A DNA stretch of 64,000 nt from Gemmatimonadales bacterium (GCA_035491815.1 DATJKA010000054.1:15004-79003), one strand, 5' to 3'. Positions 5,528-53,908 are shown, numbered from the stretch's first letter. The notes: generated by a model from the letters alone, not told the origin. Program-made: numbers and translations.

Positions 5528-5561
5528 TGGCGGCGAGGGGGAGGGGGGATATCTTCTCGGT

Positions 5562-16373: not shown

Positions 16374-17882
16374 TTGGTCTACTCCATTGGAATGGTCCCC
16401 AGCGAATCGGACTAAGCCATTGCTTCCGTGGGAGTAACAAGGTGTAGGTCTTCTGACCCAAAAGGATGGGCTGCTGGCGCGGGAAATGCATCCCGATCGA
16501 ATGCCCTGTGCCAACCCTAGAACCGAGAGAGCAGACCGTGAGCCTTCCGCAGAGTGCCGCCTCGCACCCTGTCGCGCCGCCCCCGCTTCGAGTCGAGCAG
16601 GCCTTGCGCTTGCTGCCGGACATCGACGACCTCGCCCCCCTTCGGGGATGTGTGGTTTCCCTCTCCTCGAATCGGTCACCTGGTGGAGGCATCTGGGCCG
16701 GAGCGGATCCCAACGGCACGATCGGCAAGCGTACGCTCGACCCCGGTGCGCTCCGCAGTCGGATGCCGCTCGTCCTCGATCGCGTGACTCGTCGCGTTGC
16801 CGTGCTGTACGACGCCGCCGTGGATGCGCTCGAATCCGAGCAGAGCGGAGACATGTCCCAGGCGGTTCGCGCGCTGGTGCGGGCCGGTGAATTCGAAGAG
16901 CGCTCTGTTCGTTTTTCGCACGCCCGCGCGTGGTATCGCCAGGCGCTCGGCATCGCGGAGCAGTTGCGCGACCGGCAGCCCGAAATGGAAACGCTGTGCC
17001 ACCTGGGACGACTCGAATCGACGCGCGGCTACCTGGACGAAGGCGCGCGGGCCTACCAGCGGAGCCTCGCGCTCGCCGAAGCCGAATACGATCATGCGCA
17101 CGCCGCCGGGGCGTGCCAGGGATTGGGCGACGTCTTGTTCGCGCAATCGCAGTGGGTCGGGGCGGAGGCCTGGTTCAGCCGCGGACTGCAGTACGCCGGT
17201 GCGAACCACACCATGAAGGGTTCGCTGTCGCTGGGTCTGGCGCAGACCGCGCTGCGCCGGCGCGACTACGGCGCCGCGGCCGAGCATGCCAAGGTCGCGC
17301 TCGAGAGCTTCGAGTCGGCGCGCGACAGTAGCGGGATTGTGCGCGCACTTCTCACGCGCGGTCTCATCGAAGCCGCCCAGGGCAAGCGGTCGGACGTACT
17401 GGTGACGTATCGCGAGGCGCTGGCCCGCCTGCCCACGAGCGACGTCGACGGCGTTCTGGAGCTCGCCGTGCGGCTCAATCTCGCCGAGATCTATCTCGAG
17501 CTGGGTCGCCTTCCGGACGCGGAGGACGAAGCGCGTCGCGCGGAGAACCTCGCCGTGATCAATGAACAACAGGGCGCGCTGGCGCGCGTGTACGTGATCA
17601 TGGGACGACTGCGTGGCCGCCAGGGCGACGAGAGCGGATTCGTGTTCTTCGAGCAGGCCATCCAGCTGTGTCGCAGTGGCGAGCCGGCCCGCCGCCTCGA
17701 GGTTGAAGTTTATCGCGAGTACGCGCGGTTTCGGACGACCATGGGCGACCGCGATGAGGCGCGCGCGTATCTCGAACGCGCGCGAGACTTGCTCGAGCCG
17801 TTCGGCGACGACGCCGCGCGGGATCGCATCGCCGGCGAGCTGCGCGAGCTCGACCTTTGGGTTGGGGCGGGGACCGGACCGG

Positions 17883-19070
<1,188 letters not shown>

Positions 19071-31586: not shown

Positions 31587-33512
31587 TCACCAGGACAGCT
31601 CGTGATCGCGCATCCACGTCTCGAGCGAAAGCAGCATGAAGACGCGCTGGTACAGGCCGGCGCGGCTGATCGCTCCGCCCCGCGGCGCGTAGGACGCCTC
31701 GCGGAATCGGGCCAGCCAGGTTCGCACCAGCGCCCGGTTGAGGAACCAGCCGGTGCGGGCGTCACTGGCGAGCAGTAGATCCTCCACCGCGGTGTGCACG
31801 GCAGGTGTGGCCATGATGTCGAGCGGGATCGAGAAGCCGTGCTTCTTGTGGCGCGCGACCTCTCCGGGCAGCCATTCGCGCGCCAGCGCGCGCAGCACGA
31901 GCTTGCCCTGACGCCCGTCGGTCTTGAAGCGGTGCGGCAGCGTGAGGCCGAGCTCGACGATGGTGTCGTCGAGGAGAGGCACGCGCACTTCGATGGAGGC
32001 GCGCATGCTCATCATGTCCACCTTCCGGAGCATGTCGGAGGGCAGGCTGACGGAGAACAACTTCTCCGTCATCCGGCGCGAGAGCTCTTCGAGCGAGCCC
32101 GCCGCTTCGGGGCGGTAGCCGTCGAAGTGGCGGTACACGGGTGCGAGTCCCTCCCCGACGGTCGGCAGCAGGAGCTGGTTCTTTTGGTTCTCGGACAGGT
32201 AGTTCGACAGACCGGAGATCAGCACCGACGAGTTCTGCCGCCCCACCTCGGCCAGGACCGCCGCTTTCGCCAGCTGGCGCCCGAAGTCGCGCGTGCAGCC
32301 GGCGAGTGCATTGCCCGCGCTGATCGCGGCCGAGCGTGCCCAGCGGGGCAGGCGCATCAAGCGGTCGAGGCGATTGGCGCGCCAGAAGCGGCCGTATCCG
32401 CCGAAGGCCTCGTCGCCGCCGTCGCCCGACAACGCGCAGATGATCCCCTGGTCGCGAATCGCGCGCGACACCCAGTACATCGGAATGCAGCTCGTGTCCG
32501 CGAACGGCTGGTCGAAGTGGCGGACCAGGTTGATCAGGGTGTCTGGGCTCAGGTTGTAGTCGTCGAGCCGGATCACGTGGTGGTTGGTCCCGACGTGATC
32601 GGCGACGGCCAGCGCATGCGCCGTTTCATCGTGCCGCGGATCGGGGAACTCGACGTTGAACGTCGTCGTGCGCGTGTCGGTCGCATGGCGGTGCGCCGCG
32701 ACGACGAGCGACGAGTCGATGCCGCCCGACAGCAAGGCGGCCACGGGAACGTCGGCGACGGACTGCCGCTGCACGGTGTCGAGCAGTCGCTCACGCAGTG
32801 CGTCGACCGTGAGCTCCATGCGCGTGGGCTTCGGCGCGGCGCTGATGGTGTGATACGCGCTTTCGCGTCGTCCCGCGGGATCGGCGACCAGGAACGACGC
32901 GGCCTGGAGCGCGCGAATCTCGCAGAATCCGGTGGACGGCTCCGGGATGTAGCCGAGGCCAAGGAAGTCCCAGCACGCCTGGCGATCGATGCGGGGCCGA
33001 AAGCGCGGCAGCGCGACGAGCGCTTTGATCTCGCTCGCGAACGCGAGCTGCCCCTCGTGCTCGGCATAGAACAGCGGCTTCACGCCGTAGCGGTCGCGCG
33101 CGAGGAACAGCCGGCGCCGCGGCGCGTCATAGATCGCGAACGCGAAGATCCCGCGCAGCACCTCCACCATGCGCTCGCCGCGCTCTTCGTACAGGTGCAC
33201 GAGGACTTCGGTGTCCGACGTCGACCGGAAGTGGTGCCCGCGCGCCTGCAGTAACAGCCGCAGCTCGCGGTGGTTGTAGAGCTCACCGTTGTAGACGATC
33301 TGGATCGTGCCGGTCTCGTTCGTCATCGGCTGGCGGCCCGACTCCGAGAGGTCGATCAACGCGAGGCGGCGGTGCACGAGCTCGCAGCGCTCGTCCCGGA
33401 AATGGCCGGAGCCATCCGGGCCGCGATGCGCCAGCAGCCGATCGGCGCTTTGCGCCCATCCGTCCGCGGCGGGCAGCCCCTCAGTGTGGAACCGTCCTGC
33501 TATGCCGCACAT
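31587..33512 (-). CDS. Asparagine synthase (glutamine-hydrolysing)-type amidotransferase
   Basis: Start MCGIAG (Cys2 nucleophile) at 33512. HRGPDG, and the PP-loop LLSGGIDSS. Confidence 0.9.
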   Translation of the reverse strand: MCGIAGRFHTEGLPAADGWAQSADRLLAHRGPDGSGHFRDERCELVHRRLALIDLSESGRQPMTNETGTIQIVYNGELYNHRELRLLLQARGHHFRSTSDTEVLVHLYEERGERMVEVLRGIFAFAIYDAPRRRLFLARDRYGVKPLFYAEHEGQLAFASEIKALVALPRFRPRIDRQACWDFLGLGYIPEPSTGFCEIRALQAASFLVADPAGRRESAYHTISAAPKPTRMELTVDALRERLLDTVQRQSVADVPVAALLSGGIDSSLVVAAHRHATDTRTTTFNVEFPDPRHDETAHALAVADHVGTNHHVIRLDDYNLSPDTLINLVRHFDQPFADTSCIPMYWVSRAIRDQGIICALSGDGGDEAFGGYGRFWRANRLDRLMRLPRWARSAAISAGNALAGCTRDFGRQLAKAAVLAEVGRQNSSVLISGLSNYLSENQKNQLLLPTVGEGLAPVYRHFDGYRPEAAGSLEELSRRMTEKLFSVSLPSDMLRKVDMMSMRASIEVRVPLLDDTIVELGLTLPHRFKTDGRQGKLVLRALAREWLPGEVARHKKHGFSIPLDIMATPAVHTAVEDLLLASDARTGWFLNRALVRTWLARFREASYAPRGGAISRAGLYQRVFMLLSLETWMRDHELSW

Positions 33513-34741
33513 GGCGTCGATCTCCGGGGGATGGCTGCGCCGGCGGCGACGGCGACGGCAAAGGCGAACCACAGCATCTTGGAGGCGATCCAGGTGCCGC
33601 TGATGCAGCCGATCAGGACGGTCACGAGCAGCGCGAACGGAAACACGCCGAGCGGTCCGTTGCGGGCCCGCCAGGATTCGCGCAGGCAGAGCATGAGCCC
33701 GACGAGAAACGGAATCGTGCCGAGGATGCCGACGGTAGAGAAGAGCTCGAACATGATGTTGTGCGCGTCACGGCGGTCCTTGTTTTCTTCGCCGATGCGT
33801 TGGGCGATTTCGTATTGGTTCTCGATCGGCCCCCACCCGAGCAGGGGGCGCTCCCGGATCATCGACAGCACGGCGGGATAGATGCGCTCGCGGCCCGCGA
33901 GTGAGCCTTGCGTGAACGCTTGCTCGAACCGCACGCGGAGCATCGGGGAGCGGTATGCCGCGACGCCGAGTGCCGCGAGAGCTACGAAGCCGACGAACAC
34001 GCCCCGCAGCCGCGCGAACATCGTTCGACCATGCCACAGCAAGGCCAGCGTCCCAACCGCGGCGCAGAACAACCCGCCACGCGATCCCGTCTGAATGAGC
34101 GCCAACCCGATCACGCCTGCGACCAGCCAGGCGACGATCTTCAGACGCAAGTTCAATACCGTGACAAAGCCGGCCGACAGGATGATCGCGCTGTAGTTGG
34201 GATTCTGGCCGAGCACCGTCACGCGCACGCCGCCGGTCCATTCGGCGTGCGTGGATGCGGCGATACCGAGCACCTGCATGCCCGCGCGCACGGCGCAGGC
34301 GAATGCGAAGGTGAGCAAGGCGCCGCGCATCGCGCGCGGGTCGCGCATCACGTTGCTACCCGCCCACAGGATCAACAGCAGCTGCGCGAATTCACCGAAC
34401 AGCTCGGCGACCTGCGCGACGTGATCGGCGCGATTCCACATCGTGCTGAGGCCGAAGCACCAGAGGTACGCCACGAACCACAGCATGGCGGTGGGAATGC
34501 GGCGGTAGATCACGCTCAAGTTGAGCACCGTCGACAGCAGGAAGATGCAGGCCGTCAGCGTCGGGATCTCGATCGGGAATGTGCGATCGGGCATCTCGAA
34601 CGGGATCGTCAGGACAAAGAGGTAGAGCGCGACGCGGACGAGCGCGCTTACGCGCGTCGGCGCGGTCGCGGAGCTGATCGCGATCGGCGCGGGTGGCGCG
34701 GGGAAGAGCGGCTCGAACGCTCGCGGATGCGCGACGGTCAT
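33500..34741 (-). CDS. O-antigen ligase/polymerase family membrane protein (Wzy-like)
   Basis: Start ATG 34741 (ATGA overlap). About 10 hydrophobic segments. Wzy_C-like motif RRDAHNIMFELFSTVGILG. Confidence 0.75.
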   Translation of the reverse strand: MTVAHPRAFEPLFPAPPAPIAISSATAPTRVSALVRVALYLFVLTIPFEMPDRTFPIEIPTLTACIFLLSTVLNLSVIYRRIPTAMLWFVAYLWCFGLSTMWNRADHVAQVAELFGEFAQLLLILWAGSNVMRDPRAMRGALLTFAFACAVRAGMQVLGIAASTHAEWTGGVRVTVLGQNPNYSAIILSAGFVTVLNLRLKIVAWLVAGVIGLALIQTGSRGGLFCAAVGTLALLWHGRTMFARLRGVFVGFVALAALGVAAYRSPMLRVRFEQAFTQGSLAGRERIYPAVLSMIRERPLLGWGPIENQYEIAQRIGEENKDRRDAHNIMFELFSTVGILGTIPFLVGLMLCLRESWRARNGPLGVFPFALLVTVLIGCISGTWIASKMLWFAFAVAVAAGAAIPRRSTPCAA

Positions 34742-36351
34742 GCGCGTTTCGGGCGAAGACCCGTCACCATGCCGCGCACGCGCTTGACGAGCATGCGGCG
34801 CGTATCGGGCGTCGCGCCGACGAAGAGCGCGAACGCGGCGACCAGCGGCACCGTCGCCGCGACGGCCGCGGCCCAGAGATACCAGCGCGACACGCGCACG
34901 TGGCTGCCGGCCAGCATCGCCGCGACGAACAGCAGCGCCGTGACGAGCGTCATGCGCCACGCCGCCCAGCGCGCCGCGGCGTCCTTCGGCGGATTCTGGA
35001 GACAGTTGCGGACGATCAGCGGATATCCGATCGATTGAATCGAGCGGCCCAGGAACATGCCGAGGCACAGCCCGAGGATGCCGAGCAGATGCGTGAGCAC
35101 GATGCCGAGCGCGAGCGTCGCCACGACGGTGACGGCGCCGATGATCACGCGGCCGCGCGGCCGCAGCGCGGCGTCGATGATGTACGAGTCGGTCCGGATG
35201 AACGCGGTCTGCGAGATCACCAGAACGATCAGCAGGTTCACTAAAGGACCGGCGTAGTTCTTACTGCCGACCCAGAGATGCAGGAACGATGGATTCCACA
35301 CGAGCACGGTCGCACCGACGATCGTCGTGAAGAGCCACGTCAGCGTCCGCAGCTCGCGGCGCAGCTGCACCGCCTTCGCGAACTGCTTCTGCCCGAGCAC
35401 GCCGCCGAACCCCGGCATCGCGGCGCCCGCGGTAAAGACGAACACGCCGAGCCCGATGCGCGCCGAGTAGCTCGTCAGCACGTAGGTCGTGACGGCCACG
35501 GGCGAGACCACCCAGCCGAGCACCAGCACGTCGCTCGCGAGGAGCAGCTTGGAGACGAGGTCGCCGACGGCGAGCCAGACGCTCATGTTGAGCAAGCCTT
35601 TGACGGCTTCCTTGGTCGGCTTGGCGACGTGGAACCACGGCAGGTAGCGCCGCACGAGCAGCCAGTAGACGGCGCCAACGATGAAATCGCGCGCGATCCA
35701 CGAGCTGCCGAGGCCCGGAAGGCCGAAGTCGGCTTTCACCGCCCAGACCGCGATCCCGCCGACGACGACGCTGGTCGCCGATTGGAGGCCCATCCGCTTG
35801 TAGCCGAGATTCATGCCGCGCAGCACCGACTCGGGCACGGCCGCCAAGCCAGCGAAGATGAACGCGACGACGAGCAGCGCGCAGGTGAGCCGGACCGCGC
35901 CGCGCTGCGCCTCGGGGGCGTGCGTCAGCGTCGGAGCGAGCCAGGCGAGCCCGCCGCCAACCAGCGCCACCAGCGGCAACATCAGCACCCAAACGACGAG
36001 CGCCGCGCCAATCGACCGCCGCTTCTCGACCACATCGGCCGTCTGGTTTTGAGAGATCACCAGGCGCAATGCTTCGCTGGCCCGGCCGTCGGTCGCGGCC
36101 ATGTAGCCGATCATGCGTCCCAGCATTTCCCAGATGCCGTACAGCGAGCGGCCGAGCGTGGTGACCAGGATCGGCGTGATCACCAGCTGCACGCCGGCCT
36201 TCACGGAGTAATCGAGTAGCGAAGCGACCGCGGTGAGCGACGCTCGTCTGGTCAGCGCCTGCGATTTGGGTTTCGCAGCAACGGAAGGCGCCGCTTCAGT
36301 GACCGGCGGCACCACGCTCGCGGGTGGGATCGGAAGCGCGTTAGTTCCCAT
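34738..36351 (-). CDS. MOP-superfamily polysaccharide flippase (Wzx-like)
   Basis: 537 aa, polytopic throughout, with at least 12 hydrophobic segments. Sits next to the Wzy-like gene. Confidence 0.7.
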   Translation of the reverse strand: MGTNALPIPPASVVPPVTEAAPSVAAKPKSQALTRRASLTAVASLLDYSVKAGVQLVITPILVTTLGRSLYGIWEMLGRMIGYMAATDGRASEALRLVISQNQTADVVEKRRSIGAALVVWVLMLPLVALVGGGLAWLAPTLTHAPEAQRGAVRLTCALLVVAFIFAGLAAVPESVLRGMNLGYKRMGLQSATSVVVGGIAVWAVKADFGLPGLGSSWIARDFIVGAVYWLLVRRYLPWFHVAKPTKEAVKGLLNMSVWLAVGDLVSKLLLASDVLVLGWVVSPVAVTTYVLTSYSARIGLGVFVFTAGAAMPGFGGVLGQKQFAKAVQLRRELRTLTWLFTTIVGATVLVWNPSFLHLWVGSKNYAGPLVNLLIVLVISQTAFIRTDSYIIDAALRPRGRVIIGAVTVVATLALGIVLTHLLGILGLCLGMFLGRSIQSIGYPLIVRNCLQNPPKDAAARWAAWRMTLVTALLFVAAMLAGSHVRVSRWYLWAAAVAATVPLVAAFALFVGATPDTRRMLVKRVRGMVTGLRPKRA

Positions 36352-37015
36352 TGCGCCGCTGCAGCAGCGTGGTCATCAGCCGGTCGGTGTTCTCGCGCTG
36401 GGCGCTGTCATCGGTCCGCAGCGCGTCCACCACCAGATGGCCGGCGCGGGAGATCTCCGCGATCACGCGGTCGAACGCTTTGCGGAATCCGGCAGCAAAG
36501 CCGTAGATCTCCTCGTCCGAGCTGTTCTTGACCAGATGATCTTTTTCGCGCGTGCGGATGCGCTGCGCGAGCGTCGAATCGGACGCGTCGATGAAGACGA
36601 CGACGTCGAGCAGGGACGCCCAGTCGGAGATCGCACGGCGCCGCCACGCCGGCGCGCGGTCGCCGTTGCGCGCAAAGTAGAAGTCGATCCAGCTCAACGC
36701 GAACACCGGTCCTTCGTCGAGAATGATCACGCGGTGCTTGCGGGCTTCATCGTCCACGATGCGGCGCAGCGCACCGAGCCGGATCATCTGCGCCATCTCT
36801 TCCCACTGCAGGCGGCGCGACGGCCGGACGGCGGCGGTGAGAAACGTGGGAATGAGCGGAATCACCGCCTCAAGGAGCTTCGGGCGGGGCAACCCCCAGA
36901 GGGTGAGACCGGAGCGCACCGTGGGATCGACGGCACTGACTCCCTGGGCGAGAGTTGTCTTGCCGGCGCCCGCCGGACCGACGAGCTCCACGACAACCCC
37001 ACGCTGCCGATTCAT
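36341..37015 (-). CDS. P-loop NTPase / small-molecule-kinase-like protein
   Basis: Walker A GPAGAGKTT and Walker B-like VIILDEGP. No signal peptide. Confidence 0.6.
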   Translation of the reverse strand: MNRQRGVVVELVGPAGAGKTTLAQGVSAVDPTVRSGLTLWGLPRPKLLEAVIPLIPTFLTAAVRPSRRLQWEEMAQMIRLGALRRIVDDEARKHRVIILDEGPVFALSWIDFYFARNGDRAPAWRRRAISDWASLLDVVVFIDASDSTLAQRIRTREKDHLVKNSSDEEIYGFAAGFRKAFDRVIAEISRAGHLVVDALRTDDSAQRENTDRLMTTLLQRRNGN

Positions 37016-38460
37016 AGATTCTTCCAGAACGTCGTTTTGAGTGTACTGATGACCTGTGGCAACGGTTGTGCCGCGTCGACGACGATCGCGCCGCTGGTTG
37101 CCCAGTCGGCGGCCGCCGTGAGCCGCGCGCGCTCGCGCACGTACTCCGCCGGCTCCGACGGCTTGCGGTTCACCGCGGTCTCGGCGTCGAGCTTCAGGAC
37201 GAACGTGAGATCGGGGCGGGGCATCCGCTCATAGAGCGAGCGCTCGTAGCGGCGCAGCCGATCGGCCATGCGGGACTGTGCCTTCGTCGCATGGCCTTGC
37301 ACCTCGCTCGGCCCCGAGAGTGTCCAGCCTTCGCGCGAGGGATAACGCTCGCAAATGGCGACGCCGCCGCCCGCGGCGCAGCGGAACGCGCGCCGCACGA
37401 GGCGCGCGCGATCGCGGCCCGTGCACACGCTACGAAGCAGCTCGAGATGCGCGACGAACCGCCGCGACAGTCGCGCGCGCTCTGCAACCTTGAGCAGTCC
37501 TCCCACGACCAACGTGGTGAGCGAGCGCGTGGGGCGGCCGAGGTGCAGATGGATCGTCGCGATCACGGGCGCGAGCCAGGTGGTCAGCGCGTCGGCACAG
37601 GTGGACTTCCCCGATCCGTCGCCACCCGCCAGCGCGACCACCACGCCGCCGCCCGCGAGCGGTTGGCCCTGCGGGCGCACGCGACGCCAGAGCCGCTCGG
37701 CGAATGCAAAGATCGGCGGGCGACTGGCATGCACCGATAGCGCGCGCGTCAAGCGCCAGCGCGTCAGGACGCGCCGCCAGGCGGGACATCCCGGCAGCAA
37801 GGAGGCACGCGCCTGATCGACCAGCTTCGGCGACACTTCCGGCAGCAGCCGCGACAGGACGTCGACAACCGCCGCCGGTGTGGCTTGCTCCTCGAGGCGG
37901 TCGAGCTCCGAGAGCGCGCCATCGAGCCAGCGGGGCGGCTCGCGCCGGAGCAGATCCCGCAGCTCGTGCCGCAGCGCCAGCCGCAGCACCAGGACGACGA
38001 GCTCCAGCTCCGGAGCGGCGGTCTTGAATACGCCGTCGCTCTCGAGCTTCGCCGATGCCAACAGCTCACGCTCGAGCGGAATGCGATAATGCGTCCGCCA
38101 CGGCGACCCGATGGCGAGCCGCTCGTAGACGTGGAGATGGATCAGCTCACCGCGACGACCGTCGAGCCCGAAGAAATGCATGACGCCGCTCGCTTCACGG
38201 CCGGCCGGCGGCAGCGCCAGCTTGAACCCCAGCTCACCGAGGATCTCGGTGAACTCGGTCCAGGAGGCGCGGTCCACCAGCAAATCGATGTCGCCGCGAC
38301 CGCTCTCCCAGCGCTCGCGCTTGCCGTGGCCTTTCCACTGGCAGTAGGTCACGCCGCGCTGCGCCAGCGCGTCGCCCAGCTTCGTCACGAGGCCGAGCGG
38401 CGGTGGCGCACCGTACCCGGAGCGCGGCGGTGCGGCAGTCGGCAGCAGGCTCAATGACAC
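37012..38460 (-). CDS. Two-domain protein: nucleotidyltransferase-fold-like N-domain plus P-loop kinase-like C-domain
   Basis: N-part [10 protein letters not shown]... Walker [13 protein letters not shown] in the C-part, which resembles dNMP/thymidylate kinases. GTG start. Confidence 0.6.
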
Positions 38461-39611
38461 GAGCCTGATCCCGAGTCGGTGAACGTGACGCCCGCCGCGG
38501 GAACGAACTGCCAGTCGTAGCCGCTCTGCCTGAGCGTGAGCTTGAGCACTCCGAACGCCGCCGCGGGAGAGCGCACCTCGCTGTGCGGGTGAACGACGGT
38601 GAAATCATCCACGCTCTCGCCGCCCGTCCCCACGCTGAACTCGCGGATGCCGCGCGCCGTATCGACTTCACCTGCGGGTGTCATCGGTGCGAAGCGCTCA
38701 TAGTTGTGCTGCTGGCCGTTGAGGACGACGTCCACACCGGCGTTGTACAGCGCGTCCCAGATCGGCTTGTGCTCGGGATTCACGTTCCAGCCCGGTGTGT
38801 TCGACGAGAGAAACAGCGGCACGTGCCACATCGCGAGCGTGCACGGCTTCGTGTTCGCCGCGAGATCGCCCGTGAGCCAGGTCATCTGATCGGGGTCGAT
38901 GGTCGCGCCGCCGTGATCGTTCAACACGATGATGTGCCAGTTGCCGAGCTCGTAGCTGTAGTAGCCGAGTCCCTTGGGGCCGGCGTGATCGCCGAAGTAG
39001 TTGAATGCCGCGTCGGCATTGCCGAGGTCGTACTCGTGATTGCCGAACACCGCGTGCGTCCGATCGAGGAATTGGCCCCACGTCGGGTTGTAGCAATTGT
39101 TGTAGTTGTCGGCCGTCCCTTGCGGGAAGACGTTGTCGCCGAGCGTGAACACGGACGCGCTGGGGACCGCCGTGATCAGCGCCGCTGTGGCGAGATCGTA
39201 GTTGGTTCCGCAGCTCGAGATGTTGCCCGCGCCCATGAGCACGGGTGCCAGCGCGACGGTCGCGGCCGCGGTGTCGGGAGCACTCGCCGCGCCTTTGCTA
39301 TCGGTGACCGTCAGCGTGATCGTGTACGGCCCCGGATTCGCGTAGGTATGCGTGCCCTTCGCGTCGCTGCTCGTCCCACCGTCGCCGAACTGCCAGGCGA
39401 AGGTCAACGCGTCGCCGTCCGAATCGGACGAGGCGCTGCCGTCGAAGTTGATGACGCCCGTCTCGCTGGTGTACGGCCCGCCGGCATTCGCGACCGGCAC
39501 ATGATTCGTCGGTGGCGGGGGCGGCGGCGGTGGCGGTGGCGCCGACGAATCGGCCGGTTGACATGCGACGCCCACAGCCAAGAGCAGCGAAAAGTATTTC
39601 AGGCCAGCCAT
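38451..39611 (-). CDS. Lipoprotein: poly-Pro linker, PKD domain, MPE domain with altered metal ligands (paralogue 2)
   Basis: ATG 39611 gives the signal [17 protein letters not shown]; the ORF extends to 39632. 10 Pro. PKD motif FAWQFGDGG...[20 protein letters not shown] motifs [32 protein letters not shown]. Tail [23 protein letters not shown]. Confidence 0.85.
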
Positions 39612-40852
39612 TACGAAGGTCTCCCGTGACAAGTCCCAGAACCGGAATCGGTGAACGTGCCCTGGCCGGGGGCGGGCAAGAACTTCCAGTCGTAGCCGCC
39701 GGCCTTGAGCGTGAGCTTGAGGACGCCGAACGTCGGGTTTTCGCCGTTGCCCGCTCGAACTTCGAGGTTGGGCACGGTCGGGCCGAAGCCGTACAGGCCC
39801 TCGCCGCCGCCGGTACCGACGGTGATTTGGCGAATCCCGAAGGCCGCGTCCGCTGTGCCGTCGGGCTTCATCGGCTTGAAGCGCTGATACGTGTGGTCAT
39901 GTCCATTCAGCACGAGATCGGCGCCGTAGTCGTACAGCGCTTGCCAGATCGGCGTCGTCTCCGGCCGAATGAACGGCCGATCGGTGACGGTGCTGAACTG
40001 CGGATGGTGCATCAGCGCGAGCGTGCATTGCTGCGTGTGACTCGCGAGCTCGCTTCGCAACCACTGCTCCTGCGGGGATCCGGCGGCGATGAAGTTCGCG
40101 TTCTCGGTCCCCGTGTTCACCACGATGACGAGCCACGCCCCGAGGACGAAGTCGTAGTAGCCCTTGGTCGGGTCACCGGCGACGGCGCCGAAATACCCGA
40201 AGTAGCCGTCGGCGTTCTTGGTCGCGCCGGGGTTGTAGTAGTCGTGATTGCCGAGGACCGGGCGCATGCGGTCCTTGGCGTGGCCCCACGCGGGATCGAA
40301 GCAGGTCGCAAACTCGGTCGGCGTGCCGCTCAGGTACGCGTTGTCGCCCAGCGGCATGACAATGCCGGCGATCGTGTCGAGCAGGCTGCCGGTGGCGTCG
40401 TCGCTGGTGCGATTGCAGTCGCCGATGTCGCCGGCGGCGATGATCACGGGATCGGTTGCGTTGACGCTGAGCGAGTCCGTGCCCGTCGCGGCGTGACTGT
40501 TCGTGACGCTGACCTGCACCGTGTAGTTGCCGGTCGTGGCATACATGTGCGTCCCGGTGATCGGCGCGATCGTGCTCTTCGAGCCGCTCGCGTCGGTCGT
40601 CCCGTCACCCCAATCGACCCTGTAGCTCCAGGGCGCGCTGGCCGTGGTGGTGTCGGTGAACGTCGCGTTCAGGTCGAACGTCGTGCCGACGGGGAGCTTG
40701 TCGTTCTGGCCCGCGGTCACGACCGGCGCACCCGGAGGCGGGGGCGGCGGCGGTGGCGGTGGCGGCGGGCCAGGTGGCGTGGCGCCGCGGCAAGCCACCG
40801 CGGCGATCAGAAGCAGGGCGCCGTGTAGGCGAAGCAGAGTCTTATGTGTCAT
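39611..40852 (-). CDS. Lipoprotein: poly-Pro linker, PKD-like domain, MPE domain (paralogue 3)
   Basis: ATG 40852 gives the signal [21 protein letters not shown]. 12 Pro. PKD-like YRVDWGDG...[18 protein letters not shown] motifs [31 protein letters not shown]. Tail [24 protein letters not shown]. Confidence 0.85.
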
Positions 40853-41091
40853 TGTTCCGCGATGGTGGCGGATGGCCAGGGAAAATTGCCGCCACCGCCC
40901 GAGTCCTTCGGTGTCGCTTTCGGCGTCACCTTGGGCTCCGGTGCGGGGGCGGGCCGCTTGGTCTGCGGTTGCAGGACTGGAGAAGGCACCGCGGCCGGAG
41001 GCTCCGGTTGGTGCGATCCGCCGCCGCACGCGAGCAGCAGCGCGGTCTGCAGCGCCACTGCCATCGCGAAACGTCCGGCGAATCTCACCAT
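40849..41091 (-). CDS. Small Pro-rich lipoprotein, function unknown
   Basis: Signal plus lipobox ...AVALQTALLLACGGG, then a Pro/Lys-rich tail. Its stop overlaps the MPE3 start (ATGA). Confidence 0.5.
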   Translation of the reverse strand: MVRFAGRFAMAVALQTALLLACGGGSHQPEPPAAVPSPVLQPQTKRPAPAPEPKVTPKATPKDSGGGGNFPWPSATIAEQ

Positions 41092-41116
41092 CGAAGCCTC
41101 CAGCGCGGGTTATGAG

Positions 41117-42463
41117 TTAGTTGCAGGCGACCGACGAGGTGCTCTTGTCGGTGAAGCCACCCGCAGCCGTCGGGATGAATTCGTAGTCGTAGCTGCCGTC
41201 GTGGAGCGTGAACTTCATGACGCCCCAGCTGTCGGCCGTCCCAGTGACGCCGCCGAACTGCGCGGCGACCGGATTGCCACCGGTTGCGGCGTTCATACGG
41301 TCCAGACTGCGGCCACCCGTGCCGACGATGAATTGCGCGAAGCCTTTGGGATTCGCCGCGCCGTCAGGATCCGACTTCGGGAAGCGCTCGTACTGCTTGT
41401 CCTTTGCGCTGACCAGAACGTCCGCGCCGCTGGCGTACAGCGCCTCGGCGATGGCGTTTAGGTTCGCGTTGCGGCCCAATTTGCCAGGATCTGGCGCCCC
41501 GGTCGTGTATAGCCGGCGTTCCCAGGAGATCGCCAGGATGCAGGGTTTGGTGTTCGTAGCGAGATCCTGCGTCAGCCAGGTGAGCTCAGGGTGCGTTGCG
41601 ACGGTGTCACAACGGCTACCGCCTGGAGCGCCATCAGTCGACCAGCCGCACGTGCCAGGGGTCTGTTCGCTGGTCGTGTTCAGGACAATGATGTGCCACG
41701 ATCCAGCGTTGAAGCTGTAGTAACCGGTCGGCGCACCAGCCGAGTTGCCAAAGTACGAGTAGACGTTGGCAGCTCCACCAACACTCCTGAAGTCCATATC
41801 ACCGAGAGCGACGTGCATCCCGCCCTTGGCCGTCAGGAACTTTCCCCATGTCGGACCAAAGCACGCGTTGGGATCGGTGCTGCCGGAGCCCGACGCGATA
41901 TTGTTGCCGGTGGTGAACACGATGGTGTTCGAATCCGCCTTGATCTGGTTGTCGATCAGCGTAGCCGTCGCCGCGTTGCCGAGGCTCGAGCAAGTCGTGA
42001 TCTCACCGGCGCCGATCAGCGTGATGCTACCGGCGCCTGCGGCGAGCGTCGTCGCAGTTGCCGTCGTGCTCCACGCCGAGGAATCCGTGGCGTTGAACGC
42101 GCGCACCCGATAGCTGTACGGCGTGCTGGCCGCGAGGCCAAACGTGTCGGTGAACGCGACCGTATTGGCCGCCAAATTCGTTCCGACCTGCGCGAACGTC
42201 GTGCAGGCCGCGCCGGAGCAGCGATCGACGCGGAAACCGGTCTCATTCGTCGCGCTGTCGGTCCAGGCCAGATTGATGCCCGTCGCCGAGACGGCGGTTG
42301 CGGTCAGCCCGATCGGCGCCCGGATCGCCGGTGGCGGCGGGGGCGGCGGCGGGGGCGGCGGATTCGTGCCGCTGTCGTTCTTACAGGCGCCGATGGCGCC
42401 GATCACGCCGGCGGCTGTGAGAACGAGCGCGGCGCGAACCATGTTGCGGGGTGTGACCTTCAT
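41117..42463 (-). CDS. Lipoprotein: poly-Pro linker, fibronectin-III domain, degenerate MPE domain (paralogue 4, probable pseudo-enzyme)
   Basis: Signal ...AAGVIGAIGAC. 11 Pro. FN3 (GLTATAVSATGINLAWTDSATNETGFRVDR...YSYRVRAFN). The MPE motif positions read GAGEITTC, GNNIA, GDMDF, SWER and AKDKQYERF. Tail SYDYEFIPTAAGGFTDKSTSSVACN. Confidence 0.8.
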   Translation of the reverse strand: MKVTPRNMVRAALVLTAAGVIGAIGACKNDSGTNPPPPPPPPPPPAIRAPIGLTATAVSATGINLAWTDSATNETGFRVDRCSGAACTTFAQVGTNLAANTVAFTDTFGLAASTPYSYRVRAFNATDSSAWSTTATATTLAAGAGSITLIGAGEITTCSSLGNAATATLIDNQIKADSNTIVFTTGNNIASGSGSTDPNACFGPTWGKFLTAKGGMHVALGDMDFRSVGGAANVYSYFGNSAGAPTGYYSFNAGSWHIIVLNTTSEQTPGTCGWSTDGAPGGSRCDTVATHPELTWLTQDLATNTKPCILAISWERRLYTTGAPDPGKLGRNANLNAIAEALYASGADVLVSAKDKQYERFPKSDPDGAANPKGFAQFIVGTGGRSLDRMNAATGGNPVAAQFGGVTGTADSWGVMKFTLHDGSYDYEFIPTAAGGFTDKSTSSVACN

Positions 42464-42494
42464 ACATCGCTCCTTAGGTGGAAACGTGAGACAG

Positions 42495-42725
42495 TTACAA
42501 GCAGAAGCCGGTGCCGGAGTCGGAGATCGTGCCGCCGGCAGCCGGCACGGTTTCCCATGAGTAGGTCAGGGTCAGGCAGCTCGCATCGCTCGCCCCACCC
42601 AGGAATGCACCGCCGCCCATATCGCTCGGCAGCGTTGCGCCAAAGGCGTTGCGACACGAGACCACCGCGAGCACGGCGCCCAGAATCACGAGGGCACGCA
42701 GGAACAGCATCATGGCAGGTCGCAT
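42495..42725 (-). CDS. 76-aa mini-lipoprotein carrying only the C-terminal tail motif of the MPE family
   Basis: Signal plus lipobox MRPAMMLFLRALVILGAVLAVVSC. The C-terminus CLTLTYSWETVPAAGGTISDSGTGFCL aligns with [22 protein letters not shown] of the MPE paralogues. It sits 3 nt downstream of the FemAB/ATP-grasp gene. Confidence 0.5.
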   Translation of the reverse strand: MRPAMMLFLRALVILGAVLAVVSCRNAFGATLPSDMGGGAFLGGASDASCLTLTYSWETVPAAGGTISDSGTGFCL

Positions 42726-42728
42726 CGG

Positions 42729-44996
42729 TCACTCCTTCGCGCTGCGCAGTGTCAGCGGCGGTTCGTTGGAGCCCCGAACGACGCGCGCCAGCGAGTCGAT
42801 CCCGCGGCGGACGGTCGCGCCGATCATGGGCAGCGGGTCATCCCACGCGAAGCCACTCTTCGCCTGACAGCGAATGACCCACAGGGTCCACTCGGCAAGG
42901 GACATGCCTGCCGCGCGCGCGGCGAATTGGTCTTTCCACGGCTTGCACCAGCGCACGAATGGACGGGCCGGCCCCAGGATGGGGCGCGGTGTGCCGACCA
43001 GGTCGCCGTAAACGAGTGCGGGAAGGTTGATGCCGGCGATCGCGCCGAGGTGATGCCAAAGATTGAAACGCGGATTCACCTCGAGCAGCCGCAGCGTGCC
43101 GTCGGGGGCGCGTTTGAAATCGAATTTCGCGACGCCCCGGAACTTGAGCTTCTTGACGAGCACGCGGCCGAGCGTGAGGACGTCCTGCGCGTCGCTCGTC
43201 TCGAGCGCCGTGCTGTCGCCGTAGGACGCGGGCCACGTGCGGATCTTGCGGCCCGCGAACTCGCCGACGACCTGACCGCGCTCGTCCACGTAGGCGTGAT
43301 AGCTCTCGATCCGCGCCTCGTCGCCCGGCACGAGCTCCTGCGCCAGAATCGGGAGATTCGCGGCCATGATCTTCGGCCAGAGCGCGCGCAACGCGTCGAG
43401 ACTCTCGAGCGACGTCGCCTTCCCGGGACCCGCGAGCGGCTCCCAGCGCGCCGGAATCCGCACGAGCGGTTTCAGAATGATCGGGAAGGGAATCGCGAAG
43501 TCGTCGCCGGGCAGCGGATCACCGGGCGCGATCACGCGCGCCTGCGGCACCGGCAGATCGATGCGCGCCGCGAGCTGCTGAAACCGCGCCTTGTCCACCA
43601 GCTGCTCGACCAGCTCGGCATCCGGCACGACGAAGCGGAACGCCTCGCGCAGGCGGTCGCGATGGCGCGACACCAGCAGCAGCGTTCGGTCTTCCTGGTA
43701 GAACAACGCCGGCGGCTCGGGCTGCGCCTGGCCGAACTTCACCAGTGCGTCGACGAGCTCTTCCGGCCGCTCCCACGCGTTGTGCCACGGGAAGACGGCG
43801 CGCGTGTGGCGCGAATAGCGGACCGGCGCGCCGGGCGGGCACAGGACCGTCGACGGAATCCGCGCGAGGCCGAGCGCGCGGACCAAATCCACGTCGCCAA
43901 GGACGACGGCGGGTGGCCGGACGGGATGGGCGCGGTGGCCGCCGCGGCCGATGAATGCGGTGCTCCCGCGCGTGACGCGCGCGAGCTGCCCGCGCGCCGC
44001 CTGCTGCACGCCGTAGACCCGTTTCGCGGCGTTCCGCGCCGTCATGAGCCAGGCACGCCGGCCGCGCAGCCAGCGCCGCTTCGACAGATCGAGCTCGGCG
44101 CCGAACTTCGCCTTGAAATCGCCGCGGCCCATGAAGTCCACGTGATCGCAGCCGAGCTCGAGGGCGCGCTGCATCACGGTCCACGTCATGAGCTCGGTGG
44201 GGCGGTACCAGCGATAGTGCTGGCGGTGCGCCCACATCCAGAGCTGGAGCTCGGTGCCTTCGCGGAAGAAGAGGCCGGTCGCGATGTTGACGCGCCCGCC
44301 GGGCAGGTAGACGGAGATCGCGAGCAGGTTGCCGGCGGCCTTGAGCCGGCGGAACACCTCGAGCACACGCTGCTTGCTGAACGGCACGGCGAAGCCGCCG
44401 CGCCGGTAGACCTCTTTCACCTGCGCGTAGTGCTCGTCCACGAACGCCTCGTTCTCTTCGAACCGCGTGACGAGGCCGAGCCGTTGCGCGCGCTTCACGT
44501 TGCGACGCGCGCTGACCTTGAGCTGCTTGAAGGTGCGCGCCGTGTCACCCGGGAACAGCCGGGCGCACATTGTCGGTGCCTCTTCTTCGGCGAATCCCGC
44601 GGCGCGCATCGCATCCGGATCGAGCGACAGGCTGAGCAGCTCGATGTGATCGACGTCGTGCTCGCGCTCGAGATACGGCACGAGCGCGGCCGTGAAGGCG
44701 GCGGTAGAGAAGCGTTCCGGATCGAACGCGGGGCCGAGGCTGACGGTCTGCCAGCCTTCGAGCGGCGAGCCGAACAGCTTCCAGCGCAGCGCGGTGACGA
44801 GCAGCCCCGGACAACAGCCGACGATGCCCTGATCGTCTTCGAGCAGCAGGTACAGCGGTTTGCCGCAATTGCTGGCGGCGAGTGCGTCGATCCAGCCGCG
44901 CGTATGGGGCACGCGGGTGTTCGGAAAGCGGCGGACGATCGCGTCCCAGTGCTCGAGCTCCTCGGCGGTCGCCTCGCGAATGCGCAATGTGTTCAT
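42729..44996 (-). CDS. Fusion protein: FemAB-like/GNAT (Acetyltransf_6-type) N-domain plus ATP-grasp carboxylate-amine ligase C-domain
   Basis: Start ATG 44996 (ATGA overlap). The N-part is FemAB/CelD-like (..WDAIVRRFPNTRVPHTRGWIDAL.., ..ELMTWTVMQRALELGCDHVDFMG). The C-part has ATP-grasp motifs (FPIILKP, LAQELVPGDE, FRGVAKFDFKRAPDGTLRLLEVNPRF). Confidence 0.65.
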   Translation of the reverse strand: MNTLRIREATAEELEHWDAIVRRFPNTRVPHTRGWIDALAASNCGKPLYLLLEDDQGIVGCCPGLLVTALRWKLFGSPLEGWQTVSLGPAFDPERFSTAAFTAALVPYLEREHDVDHIELLSLSLDPDAMRAAGFAEEEAPTMCARLFPGDTARTFKQLKVSARRNVKRAQRLGLVTRFEENEAFVDEHYAQVKEVYRRGGFAVPFSKQRVLEVFRRLKAAGNLLAISVYLPGGRVNIATGLFFREGTELQLWMWAHRQHYRWYRPTELMTWTVMQRALELGCDHVDFMGRGDFKAKFGAELDLSKRRWLRGRRAWLMTARNAAKRVYGVQQAARGQLARVTRGSTAFIGRGGHRAHPVRPPAVVLGDVDLVRALGLARIPSTVLCPPGAPVRYSRHTRAVFPWHNAWERPEELVDALVKFGQAQPEPPALFYQEDRTLLLVSRHRDRLREAFRFVVPDAELVEQLVDKARFQQLAARIDLPVPQARVIAPGDPLPGDDFAIPFPIILKPLVRIPARWEPLAGPGKATSLESLDALRALWPKIMAANLPILAQELVPGDEARIESYHAYVDERGQVVGEFAGRKIRTWPASYGDSTALETSDAQDVLTLGRVLVKKLKFRGVAKFDFKRAPDGTLRLLEVNPRFNLWHHLGAIAGINLPALVYGDLVGTPRPILGPARPFVRWCKPWKDQFAARAAGMSLAEWTLWVIRCQAKSGFAWDDPLPMIGATVRRGIDSLARVVRGSNEPPLTLRSAKE

Positions 44997-45670
44997 ACGC
45001 CGTCTTGCTCTAGCAACCGACGTGCCGCGGTCATTTCGGGCGGCGGCGCGAACTTTCGTCGCCCCGCGGCGACCGCGCCGATCGCCCACAGCGTGCGGCC
45101 GATGATCTCCATGTCGCGTCGCATCGAGGCGCGGCGGAGGTACACGCGATCGAGCGCGAGTTTCGTCTTGAGCAGCTTGTCGACGTAACGCGCTTCGGGA
45201 TCGTTGCCGGTGAGCAGCTTGTCGCCCGACGTGAACTGGTAGATGCTGCCGGGACTCGCGAGCCCCGGCCGGACGCCGAGGGTTTCGAGATCGCCGGTGG
45301 AGTAGTGCTCGAGGACGATAGCGGGGTCTTCGGGCCGCGGACCGACGATGGCCATGTCGCCGCGGAGCACGTTGAACAGCTGTGGGAGCTCGTCGATTTT
45401 GGAGCGGCGCAAGAAGCGCCCGATCGTCGTGATCCGCTCGTCGCCGTGACCCGTGATGACCGCGCCGCCGGCGTCACCATCCTCCTCGTGCTTCATCGTG
45501 CGCAGCTTGAACATCGTGAACTCGCGGCCGAGATAGCCGACGCGGCGGGCGCGATAGAACACGGGCCCGCGATCGCTCAGCTTGATCCCGATGGCGGCGA
45601 TGGCGATGAGCGGTGCGGTGACGACGAGCGCCACGGTGGCGCAGACGACGTCAAATAGGCGTTTGACCAT
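44993..45670 (-). CDS. Small monotopic phosphoglycosyl transferase (bacterial sugar transferase, PglC/WbaP C-domain type)
   Basis: MVKRLFDVV..ALVVTAPLIAIAAIGIKL..GPVFY...FTMFKLRTM...DELPQLFNVLRGDMAIVGPRP. Confidence 0.9.
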   Translation of the reverse strand: MVKRLFDVVCATVALVVTAPLIAIAAIGIKLSDRGPVFYRARRVGYLGREFTMFKLRTMKHEEDGDAGGAVITGHGDERITTIGRFLRRSKIDELPQLFNVLRGDMAIVGPRPEDPAIVLEHYSTGDLETLGVRPGLASPGSIYQFTSGDKLLTGNDPEARYVDKLLKTKLALDRVYLRRASMRRDMEIIGRTLWAIGAVAAGRRKFAPPPEMTAARRLLEQDGV

Positions 45671-46325
45671 GATGCAGCGTGCGGCGAACGGTCATGAAGA
45701 CTTCGGCTGCATCGAGGCACTGCTGATTGCCCCAGGCGAGGGCCCGGTAGCGCAGCGCGTCGAGCGAGCGGGGATGAGGGTAGTCGCGCAGCTCGCTGGT
45801 GTAGCACGCCATGGCGGCGAGCTTCATGTCGAGCGTCGCGGAGATGTCCACCCACGTGTCAGCGGTGAACGTCCGCGGATACGCCCACTCGGTGCTGCTG
45901 GCCGTGTCGAAGGCATACACGGCCTGCACCCAGCAAGCAGTCGGCCGCGTCGCGACGAGCGCGGCCTGAAACAGCAGGTGATGGTCGCGATTGATGTCGC
46001 CGCCCCACTGGCAATACACGACCTGGGGCTGGACTTCCTTCACGATGGTCACGAGCGGCGTGATCAGCTCGGTCAGCGGAAACGTGTCGAGGCGCTGGTC
46101 GGCGAAGCCGAGCGGCCGCACGTCGCGCACGCCGAGCGCCGCGGCGGCGCGGCGAATGTGCTCGGGCTGTCCGACGCCTTTCTGGCCGTAGCGGAGCGAT
46201 TCGCCCTCGCACATGATCACCGACGTCACGTCGTCACCCGCGCGCGTGTGGAGCGCGACGGTGCCGCCACATCCCAGGACTTCGTCGTCCGGGTGCGCGG
46301 CGATCACGAGGACGCGGCGCGTCAT
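45651..46325 (-). CDS. PIG-L/LmbE family deacetylase
   Basis: Start ATG 46325 (ATGA overlap). VLVIAAHPDDEVLGCGG and the later HxxH region (NRDHH). The upstream part of ORF 45651-46808 is Arg-rich and non-coding-like. Confidence 0.85.
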   Translation of the reverse strand: MTRRVLVIAAHPDDEVLGCGGTVALHTRAGDDVTSVIMCEGESLRYGQKGVGQPEHIRRAAAALGVRDVRPLGFADQRLDTFPLTELITPLVTIVKEVQPQVVYCQWGGDINRDHHLLFQAALVATRPTACWVQAVYAFDTASSTEWAYPRTFTADTWVDISATLDMKLAAMACYTSELRDYPHPRSLDALRYRALAWGNQQCLDAAEVFMTVRRTLHHGQTPI

Positions 46326-50747: not shown

Positions 50748-50786
50748 GTGGCGAGGCTCTATATGGAGCCCAAGGAGCCAACCGAG

Positions 50787-53189: not shown

Positions 53190-53908
53190 ACTGCAGGATG
53201 TGGGCTGTGGTGGGTGGGATGTGGGCACTCATGGGCGCGACGTCACTCGCCGCGCAGGACAAGAATGCGGTCAACCGGCCGCTCGCGACGCGCGCCGAGC
53301 TGGAAGCCGCAATGCAGCAGGCGGGCGGGTCGCAGCTCGCGGTGCAAATCAAGAATCGCTTGACCATGGGCGATTTCCGCCGCGGCGACCGCATCGCGTT
53401 GATGGTGCAGGGCGAGGAGACGCTGACCGACACGTTCACCGTGGGCAGCGGCGCCGAGCTGATGCTGCCGCCGCCCACCGTTGGCGCGCTGTCGCTCAAA
53501 GGCGTGCTGCGCTCCGAGCTCGAGCCCAAGGTGAGCGAGTACGTCAACCGGTTCCGCAACAACGCGATCGTCCGCGCGCAACCGCTGATTCGCCTGTCGG
53601 TCCAGGGCGAAGTCAACAAGGGCGGGGTCTACGCCGTGCCCGCGGATGCACAGCTCGCCGACGCGTTGATGGCGGCCGGCGGGACAACGCAGTTCGCGAA
53701 AGCGAATGAAGTGACGATCGAGCGTAACGGCAAAGCGTTCTGGAAGGGCTCGTCGTTCGACACCGACCTCGACGCCCTGGGGGTCCAGGATGGCGATCAA
53801 ATCGTCGTCGGATCACACCGTCCGGGCGGTGGCGACACGCTCCGGATTACCGCACTGCTCGTCAGCATCGCGGGCGGTCTGTACGGCTTGAGCAGGGCAA
53901 TCCACTAG
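53186..53908 (+). CDS. Polysaccharide export protein (Wza/SLBB-like)
   Basis: ATGA overlap with the Wzc-like gene. Signal ...GATSLAAQD. Poly_export/SLBB-like core (GDRIALMV...VSVQGEVNKGGVYAVP..QLADALMAAGG). C-terminal hydrophobic helix. Confidence 0.7.
   Translation: MNCRMWAVVGGMWALMGATSLAAQDKNAVNRPLATRAELEAAMQQAGGSQLAVQIKNRLTMGDFRRGDRIALMVQGEETLTDTFTVGSGAELMLPPPTVGALSLKGVLRSELEPKVSEYVNRFRNNAIVRAQPLIRLSVQGEVNKGGVYAVPADAQLADALMAAGGTTQFAKANEVTIERNGKAFWKGSSFDTDLDALGVQDGDQIVVGSHRPGGGDTLRITALLVSIAGGLYGLSRAIH

Follow-up and report, generated by a model that had tools for sequence, protein, structure and literature searches.

Purple-acid-phosphatase-like lipoproteins with intact and altered catalytic centres in a Gemmatimonadales Wzx/Wzy polysaccharide locus

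Relatives and architecture of the lipoproteins

The high-molecular-weight purple acid phosphatases (PAPs) of plants, represented by the structures of the kidney bean (1kbp) and sweet potato (1xzw) enzymes, the wheat phytase (6gja) and the lupin protein PPD1 (3zk4), combine an N-terminal β-sandwich with a binuclear metallophosphoesterase (MPE) core. Four lipoproteins with a likewise bipartite layout are encoded in a 64,000-nucleotide stretch of DNA from a Gemmatimonadales bacterium (GCA_035491815.1 DATJKA010000054.1:15004-79003), hereafter the window. Three of the genes, designated C, B and A in the order of transcription, are neighbours within a polysaccharide locus and the fourth, D, lies at its edge (Table 1). 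The PAP ligand set of Asp, Asp, Tyr, Asn, His, His and His, together with the catalytic His of the GNH[DE] motif, is common to the plant enzymes, B and D, and of the three neighbouring genes only B keeps a complete catalytic centre, as judged from sequence. We tentatively propose, with somewhat less than even confidence, that C-B-A and two small lipoprotein open reading frames (ORFs) form a conserved accessory module, in which A, B and C would work as a unit on a phosphate ester or diester of the locus polymer or of its lipid-linked precursor.

The affiliation of the cores with the calcineurin-like/PAP superfamily, suggested in an initial annotation made from the sequence alone, is borne out by a sequence search of the Protein Data Bank (PDB), which puts PAPs on top, and by structure models, made for B and C, which both find plant PAPs first. 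In the sequence search, B matches the wheat PAP phytase (E-value 5e-5) and the kidney bean PAP (0.01), followed by Rv0805. The AlphaFold2 (AF2) model of B, with a predicted local distance difference test (pLDDT) score of 92.4 and a predicted template modelling (pTM) score of 0.87, has the sweet potato and kidney bean PAPs as its top Foldseek matches (E-value 5.6e-17, or ~6e-17, over ~435 columns), and since these alignments are longer than the ~280-residue core, they reach well into the N-terminal part of the protein. The second-tier neighbours Rv0805, GpdQ and Lmo2642 (E-values 3e-9 to 1e-6) are class III cyclic nucleoside monophosphate (cNMP) phosphodiesterases and glycerophosphodiesterases, which illustrates that the fold readily handles phosphodiesters, but they are devoid of the Tyr ligand, the N-terminal β-sandwich and the lipoprotein anchor. 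For C, the AF2 model (pLDDT 85.6) has a confidently predicted core, and its top match is the lupin PPD1 (E-value 1.8e-14, 480 columns). Both models thus show the α/β sandwich of the solved superfamily members.

An Ig-like module followed by a PAP core thus reproduces the layout of classical high-molecular-weight PAPs, except that the N-terminal module is exchanged, and the C-terminal hairpin of the lipoproteins, as read by eye, also resembles the C-terminal region of PAPs. In contrast to the plant enzymes, to which they are 13-17% identical, the proteins described here are bacterial lipoproteins with poly-Pro spacers, their N-terminal module is exchanged among PKD, fn3 and Big_2 domains, and live and degenerate cores stand side by side in arrays or fusions. 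Neither the fold nor the chemistry is new. What appears to be undescribed in the literature searched is a lipoprotein format in which the Ig module can be exchanged, cores with variant or metal-free sites that are fixed by clade, their organisation in arrays and fusions, and the conserved insertion of one array in a Wzx/Wzy locus; no account of a C-B-A module or of bacterial PAP pseudoenzymes was found in that literature.

All four genes are present as ORFs on the minus strand where the initial annotation had placed them, and a tblastn search reveals no fifth full-length copy in the window. Pairwise identity of the cores is 30-52%, with C being the most divergent. The claimed lipobox signal peptide is matched by a PROSITE-style pattern in A, B, C and D, and among full-length orthologs in 57 of 63 C-clade, 82 of 88 A-clade and 60 of 90 B-clade proteins; the single Ig-like module that differs among the copies corresponds to Pfam Big_2 in D, PKD_4/PKD in A and B and fn3 in C; and the shared tail GV[LM]K[LF]TL..Y.[WY].F.P....FTD......C is found in all four. 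A proline linker is likewise present in each copy, although in D the run is located between the Big_2 module and the core and not before the Ig-like module. The proline runs are encoded by mixed CCG/CCA/CCC codons, and phase variation via these tracts was considered and rejected because of the mixed CCN codons and because slippage would stay in frame. At E ≤ 0.01, neither Pur_ac_phosph_N nor Metallophos_C of Pfam matches any of the lipoproteins, and no NCBIfam family scores above its cut-off for A, B, C or D.

Apart from the Cys of the lipobox, the proteins share the conserved cysteines C146, C184, C276 and C408, and the co-loss of these four was counted across 494 cores. C146 and C184 are both absent in 19 cores from several clades, C146 is never absent alone, and C184 is absent alone in five cores, in one of which a displaced Cys is found five residues upstream; C276 and C408 are both absent in three cores. 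This pattern supports disulfides C146-C184 and C276-C408, and it contradicts the earlier suggestion that the C-terminal Cys pairs with the Cys of motif I, since C146 and C408 are both absent in 0 of 494 cores. The pairwise loss of these four otherwise conserved residues is in keeping with an oxidising environment outside the cytoplasm.

The family is large: searches with the B or A core gave at least 7000 clusters at 90% identity (E ≤ 1e-5), and at 50% identity there are 13248 representatives at E ≤ 1e-3 and 3391 at E ≤ 1e-30. In databases its members carry the names "PKD domain-containing protein", "fibronectin type III domain-containing protein" [Gemmatimonadales bacterium] or "acid phosphatase type 7". 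A single-protein search of genome contigs with B gave mostly PKD-only matches, the real relatives being confined to L008-L012, and samples the breadth beyond Gemmatimonadales poorly. The sole non-Gemmatimonadota match in that scan is a canonical member of ~34% identity in L012 (10001-11008), a metagenome-assembled genome (MAG) of Candidatus Saccharimonadales (Candidate Phyla Radiation (CPR)/Patescibacteria).

Catalytic centres of the paralogs

The state of the catalytic centres was read at the PAP ligand and catalytic positions D142, D170, Y173, N202, H203, H282, H318 and H320 (B numbering). First, B and D have the canonical signature DDYNHHHH with all seven PAP metal ligands. Next, A reads NDFNHHQH, in which three ligands are changed (Asp to Asn, Tyr to Phe and His to Gln). 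Finally, the signature of C is ENADMWKK, with every metal ligand replaced. The five PAP motifs that the initial annotation had assigned to every copy therefore hold for B and D only, being variant in A (GN..C / GDNVF / GNHEY / WHVP / GQQH) and stripped of all ligands in C (GE..C / GNNIA / GDMDF / WERR / AKDK), and its description of all four proteins as phosphoesterases has to be abandoned, as C has lost every ligand and A has a conserved non-canonical site. The Metallophos family (PF00149) scores 36.9 bits in B, 35.1 in D and 25.1 in A against a gathering cut-off of 21.5, and C has no Metallophos match at E ≤ 0.01 in Pfam.

These ligand states are clade-wide properties and not sporadic ones. 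Among the best 120 B-type clusters 116 are canonical, most A-type clusters among the 120 matches listed have NDFNHHQH, and none of 72 C-type clusters has an intact ligand set, the consensus being E-N-A-x-x-W-K-K. In 56 aligned C orthologs, the pocket residues Asp224 and Arg317 are invariant, Arg316 is found in 55, and Glu154 and Asp355 each in 54, while of the site residues Asn188 is kept in 51, Trp314 in 50, and Lys354 and Lys356 each in 38. Because the replacement residues are themselves conserved, the former active site of C looks like a conserved charged Glu/Asp/Arg/Lys pocket rather than a ruin. The ratio of non-synonymous to synonymous substitution rates (dN/dS) relative to the closest locus, L008, is 0.27 for C, 0.21 for B and 0.13 for A, compared to 0.05-0.12 for the cytoplasmic neighbour genes, and for C it ranges from 0.21 to 0.43 across four comparisons. 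The low values indicate that A, B and C are all maintained by selection, with C evolving the fastest. By these sequence and model criteria C is a pseudoenzyme, a paralog that is predicted to be inactive and has kept the fold, its orthologs and purifying selection, and B is the likely catalytic member of the trio. A precedent for C is VPS29 of retromer, a protein with a metallophosphoesterase fold that has lost catalysis and serves as a binding scaffold, although VPS29 is eukaryotic, cytosolic, single-domain and unrelated in sequence, and has no live paralog as a partner.

That two of the three cores are non-canonical and yet conserved would also be expected if the proteins were mainly non-enzymatic, with the Ig-like modules and degenerate cores acting as polymer-binding or adhesin-like anchors of the exopolysaccharide (EPS) and the active site of B being incidental. 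Both Ig-like modules and proline spacers are common features of proteins at the cell surface, and the trio genes do evolve faster than the surrounding cytoplasmic genes. Such a role nevertheless seems improbable, given that none of the arrays and trios in the twelve EPS-linked loci checked for ligand signatures is without a fully canonical core and that the ligands of the B clade are almost invariant, which argues that catalysis is selected. An attack on foreign substrates, for example on extracellular DNA or, as raised in the initial annotation, on the phosphorylated polymer of a competitor, is more doubtful still and has very little probability in our estimate. The lupin PPD1, the best structural match of C, is reported to degrade DNA and to have an FN3-like domain involved in DNA binding (PMC4062093), but C, the PPD1-matching paralog, is exactly the one without metal ligands, and there are no toxin, immunity or secretion genes among the nearby window genes scanned.

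The combination of live and altered cores recurs within single chains. Two to four cores per chain are found in 31 of the 148 representative proteins analysed, and 20 of these 31 combine DDYNHHHH with variant cores, mostly in the order variant-canonical-variant; many start with a lipobox-like N-terminus. This is also the order of C, B and A, and the fusions provide classical Rosetta-stone evidence that the cores act together. Examples are a 1072-amino-acid (aa) ORF with three in-frame cores in L133 (2505-5723) and the one-chain core ORFs of L127 (1071 aa) and L066 (1340 aa; 3470-7492). The chains of P0361 (1646 aa), P0362-P0370, L133 and L066 comprise three or four PAP-like cores separated by PKD repeats, as a rule a canonical core with degenerate ones on either side, and most of these chains have a lipobox-like signal at their start.

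Linkage to Wzx/Wzy genes and composition of the locus

The order FemAB/ATP-grasp, C, B, A, nucleotidyltransferase (NTase)-kinase, kinase, Wzx, Wzy is identical in L001, L002, L005, L008 and L064, and the 6.4-kb contig L009, which ends inside B, has the same order as far as B; identity of B to that of the window in the syntenic loci is 56-85%. Among eighty metagenome loci, which were found by a family profile and scored by tblastn with the EPS proteins of the window, mixed canonical and variant arrays lie directly upstream of NTase-kinase/kinase/Wzx/Wzy homologs that are 38-51% identical to those of the window. In the deeper loci, where Wzx is ~50% and the NTase-kinase ~43% identical, the arrays contain three (L067), six (L068), six (L098) and seven (L071) cores, and the contigs of L110 and L119, which break off within the region, show part of this arrangement. 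Homologs of the NTase-kinase with 42-90% identity follow the MPE array in L001, L002, L005, L008, L064, L067, L068, L071, L098, L110 and L119. The seven cores of L071 (6064-14275) and the six of L098 (9170-16625) are situated between Bac_transf and NTase-kinase/Wzx/Wzy homologs, and the recurrent variant signatures NDYNHHHR, NDYDLHHG and DDGDAHHR form clades of their own.

In a neighbour-joining tree A, B and C each make up their own clade, and D groups with generic single-copy members of the family; elsewhere, a D-like protein lies outside any polysaccharide locus, and the genomic context of Ig-less or Big_2 members, examined in three cases, likewise gives no tie to polysaccharide genes. The supposed linkage to polysaccharide loci is therefore upheld for the C-B-A module, which is Wzx/Wzy-linked across deep divergence, but not for the family at large or for D-type members. 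The counter-possibility raised in the initial annotation, that of common phosphate-scavenging enzymes never linked to such loci, correspondingly describes the family background and the D-type proteins and fails for C-B-A.

Start/stop overlaps of the phosphoesterase-like genes with the flippase-side genes had been proposed. They exist between B and A (TAATG) and between A and the next gene, but C is separated by ~265 nt and 25 nt from its called neighbours, and its start is preceded by an AAGGAG ribosome-binding site. Together with an ATGA overlap at the start of B, the overlaps imply translational coupling. The gaps around C are bordered or filled by two small lipoprotein ORFs, both of which are also called by independent gene callers. 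The 76-aa ORF sits in the ~265-nt gap, ends in ..CLTLTYSWETVPAAGGTISDSGTGFCL followed by the stop codon, and in the DNA alignment and its translations is open at 73-77 codons in L008, L009, L064 and L005, with a dN/dS of 0.3-1.0. Because L002 has a full-length, Ig-less core of 298-313 aa with the signature DDANRHQR at the homologous position (~7692-8591), the ORF is a relic of a fourth tandem paralog. A 90-aa ORF at 42460-42732 was rejected, as the orthologous regions have stop codons in it and the conserved frame is that of the 76-aa ORF. The proline-rich 80-aa ORF lies beyond the 25-nt gap and has no Pfam match; at the protein level its conservation extends to L008 (87%), L009, L064 and L005, with a dN/dS of 0.20.

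Table 1 Features of the window discussed in the text, with positions counted from its first nucleotide.
Feature	Position	Strand	Description
C	41117-42463	-	Lipoprotein; 11-Pro linker 42329-42361; fn3 module; PAP-fold core, all metal ligands replaced
B	39611-40852	-	Lipoprotein; 12-Pro linker 40733-40768; PKD module; canonical PAP-like core
A	38451-39611	-	Lipoprotein; 10-Pro linker 39510-39539; PKD module; PAP-like core with fixed variant site
D	17883-19070	-	Lipoprotein; Big_2 module; 24-Pro linker 18669-18740; canonical PAP-like core; locus edge
76-aa ORF	42495-42725	-	Lipoprotein signal peptide joined directly to the family C-terminal tail
80-aa ORF	40849-41091	-	Pro-rich; lipobox LLLAC; stop overlaps B start as ATGA
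FemAB/GNAT + ATP-grasp fusion	42729-45089	-	Pfam; directly upstream of the module; syntenic in related loci
NTase-kinase protein, 482 aa	37012-38460	-	Directly downstream of A; co-conserved with the array
P-loop kinase-like protein, 224 aa	36341-37015	-	AAA_33/AAA_18, sub-threshold; co-conserved with the array
Wzx-type flippase	34738-36351	-	Pfam Polysacc_synt; syntenic in related loci
Wzy-type polymerase	33500-35068	-	Pfam Wzy_C
Bac_transf	44993-45670		Pfam
Wzz + AAA_31 protein	50748-53189		Pfam
SLBB protein	53186-53908		Pfam
Sigma-54 activator and TPR protein	14740-16320, 16466-17914	+	Flank the locus; recall exosortase-type EPS loci
β-helix protein 1	11598-13097	+	Right-handed β-helix
β-helix protein 2	19211-20602	+	Right-handed β-helix
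β-helix protein 3	22384-24075	+	Right-handed β-helix; also carries a Big_2 module
β-helix protein 4	24181-25596	+	Right-handed β-helix
α-Amylase/CBM48 and glycogen-debranching (GDE) genes	53915-57858	+	Directly after the Wzc/SLBB export pair

The surroundings, as annotated earlier, are those of a genuine Wzx/Wzy/Wzc/Wza-type locus, which according to Pfam scans of the window proteins extends from ~11.6 to 53.9 kb. A flippase, a polymerase, an initiating phosphoglycosyltransferase, a co-polymerase/tyrosine kinase and an outer-membrane export protein are all present in one cluster, as in a Wzx/Wzy-dependent locus, and the export protein matches SLBB domains only, not Poly_export. In transcription order, the module is preceded by a PglF-like dehydratase, a DegT aminotransferase, a formyltransferase, a PIG-L deacetylase, the small Bac_transf initiating transferase and the FemAB/GNAT and ATP-grasp fusion, and followed by the NTase-kinase, the kinase-like protein, Wzx, Wzy, AsnB, glycosyltransferases, two CapK-like ligases and a polysaccharide deacetylase. 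The Wzc-like gene and the SLBB export gene are divergently transcribed, and the sigma-54 activator and the TPR protein are at the opposite end of the locus. As the Wzy ORF overlaps the Wzx gene, its true start is probably downstream of 35068. A scan of 36000-46000 for promoters and terminators gave nothing above the shuffled expectation.

In the 482-aa NTase-kinase protein, the N-terminal part is nucleotidyltransferase-like by eye (GDIDLL) and the C-terminal part is P-loop kinase-like; its only matches (Thymidylate_kin, AAA_29 and dTMP-kinase) are weak and sub-threshold, and a PDB sequence search gave no useful relative. The 224-aa kinase-like protein likewise has no relative by sequence in the PDB. 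No NCBIfam family is above cut-off for the kinase-like neighbours. The FemAB/ATP-grasp protein scores 48.9 bits with the PEP-CTERM-associated FemAB model TIGR03019, the cut-off of which is 260. A PEP-CTERM/exosortase system was rejected, since neither an exosortase nor a PEP-CTERM protein is found among the window genes scanned and the MPE tails end in ..SGSGSC(H).

Several further features of the window were observed. The Wzx gene is 97% identical to its counterpart in L008 (14502-16112), with a synonymous divergence (dS) of 0.145 compared to 0.37-0.59 for its neighbours, and this locally younger segment possibly reflects recent recombination of the flippase gene. The four right-handed β-helix proteins of the locus represent a second paralogous family, interleaved with the minus-strand biosynthesis genes; three of the four have weak pectate-lyase-like matches, and by eye secretion was noted for β-helix protein 2 only. 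They are candidate polysaccharide lyases or depolymerases. The amylase and GDE genes probably belong to glycogen or trehalose metabolism and are unrelated to the EPS locus. The G+C content of the window is 67%, and among named organisms Gemmatimonadales MAGs are the closest to it. B has an 85% identical counterpart in the isolate SMAG_U213, and the C core recurs at 100% identity in a protein encoded by a pair of short metagenome contigs, of which one is labelled as soil metagenome.

Possible role of the module and its meaning

The architecture, ligand states, fold, selection, synteny and fusions are seen in the sequences and models, whereas the proposed mode of action of the module is conjectural. 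The proteins would be membrane-tethered, disulfide-stabilised and PAP-like, held off their lipid anchor by the poly-Pro spacers and Ig-like modules. B, as the sole canonical binuclear phosphoesterase of the trio, would supply catalysis, whereas C, predicted to be metal-free, and perhaps A, with its altered metal site, may bind the anionic substrate or present it to B. Action would take place outside the cytoplasm, presumably with the proteins located at the outer membrane or the surface and in physical association with one another, and the phosphate of the substrate could conceivably be installed by the two adjacent kinase-like proteins. The trimming of phosphate or phosphodiester substituents on the polymer, as put forward in the initial annotation, is reasonable as a hypothesis. 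The closest functional analogues of such phosphate editing are PGAP5/MPPE1 and yeast Cdc1/Ted1, luminal metallophosphoesterases that remove phosphodiester-linked ethanolamine phosphate from an assembled glycan, although these are eukaryotic membrane proteins of another MPE subfamily. In a bolder version, which we regard as unlikely, C, B and A would form one heteromeric extracytoplasmic machine for an undescribed step of the Wzx/Wzy pathway, either the stripping of a transient phosphate handle, added to the repeat unit by the neighbouring kinase-like proteins, or the cleavage of the polymer from undecaprenyl pyrophosphate (Und-PP), with the metal-free core recognising phosphate or glycan.

The position of the genes directly beside Wzx and Wzy, their conserved synteny and the lipobox pattern that marks their products as extracytoplasmic lipoproteins would also suit processing of the lipid carrier, in which, once flipping and polymerisation are over, the Und-PP-glycan linkage is cleaved or Und-PP dephosphorylated in a release or recycling step, the more so as metallophosphoesterases of the LpxH type cleave the pyrophosphate bonds of lipid-linked sugars. 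The long poly-Pro spacers and the residue other than Asp after the lipobox Cys suggest a position off the inner membrane, by a sorting rule of E. coli that may not apply here, and members outside EPS loci would need another substrate; we accordingly give this role only a slight chance.

A stronger competitor, if still on the unlikely side, is that the proteins are generic phosphate-scavenging ecto-phosphatases or phytases, merely co-located and co-expressed with the EPS, the matrix of which would retain enzymes and products while polymer synthesis proceeds independently. The majority of the family are single-copy canonical proteins with no link to polysaccharide genes, a Porin_O_P-type porin is nearby in two non-EPS contexts (L004 and L133), and the closest solved structures, the plant PAPs and PAP phytases, serve phosphorus acquisition. 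In addition, Pho18, a PAP-like non-plant enzyme obtained from a soil metagenome by functional metagenomics, has been shown to possess phosphatase and phytase activity (PMC6355987) and may serve as a model for the generic function of the family, although nothing is reported of an array, a pseudoenzyme partner or a linkage to EPS genes in its case. The module, however, is translationally coupled in the middle of an operon, and its synteny persists down to ~45% identity of the neighbours. Scavenging alone also leaves it unexplained why two of the three conserved members are without a working centre, and the absence of sigma-70-type promoter-like sites near the trio in a simple scan is a further, weak argument.

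For the accessory module that we favour, several observations weigh on the other side. The single-copy members are almost all canonical and have no homologs of the genes of this locus within ~10 kb of flank on each side (L075, L088, L105, L115 and L131), and in L010, an exception among the EPS-linked loci, the array is beside PglF/DegT/FemAB/Wzy homologs but without the kinase pair. The kinase-like proteins, on which the conceivable phosphorylation of the substrate would depend, have weak family matches only. Finally, the fused chain of L066 adjoins SecY/Map and that of L133 is near an OmpL/Porin_O_P-like porin, both outside polysaccharide loci, and mixed arrays and fusions in such places imply that the live-plus-dead design is a trait of the family and not specific to EPS.

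To our knowledge, the finishing of secreted polymers and their release from the carrier are still poorly understood, and should the polymer or the lipid carrier prove to be its target, the module would extend the Wzx/Wzy pathway by a phosphoesterase step. Whatever the substrate, the family offers a clean bacterial system for the partnering of pseudoenzymes with active paralogs and a large natural series in which a canonical phosphoesterase is accompanied by fixed non-canonical and metal-free cores, in thousands of clusters, in arrays of up to seven and in fusions of two to four, while the database names hide both the family relationship and the loss of catalytic residues. The canonical members may also contribute to organic phosphorus turnover, as Gemmatimonadota are abundant in soils.

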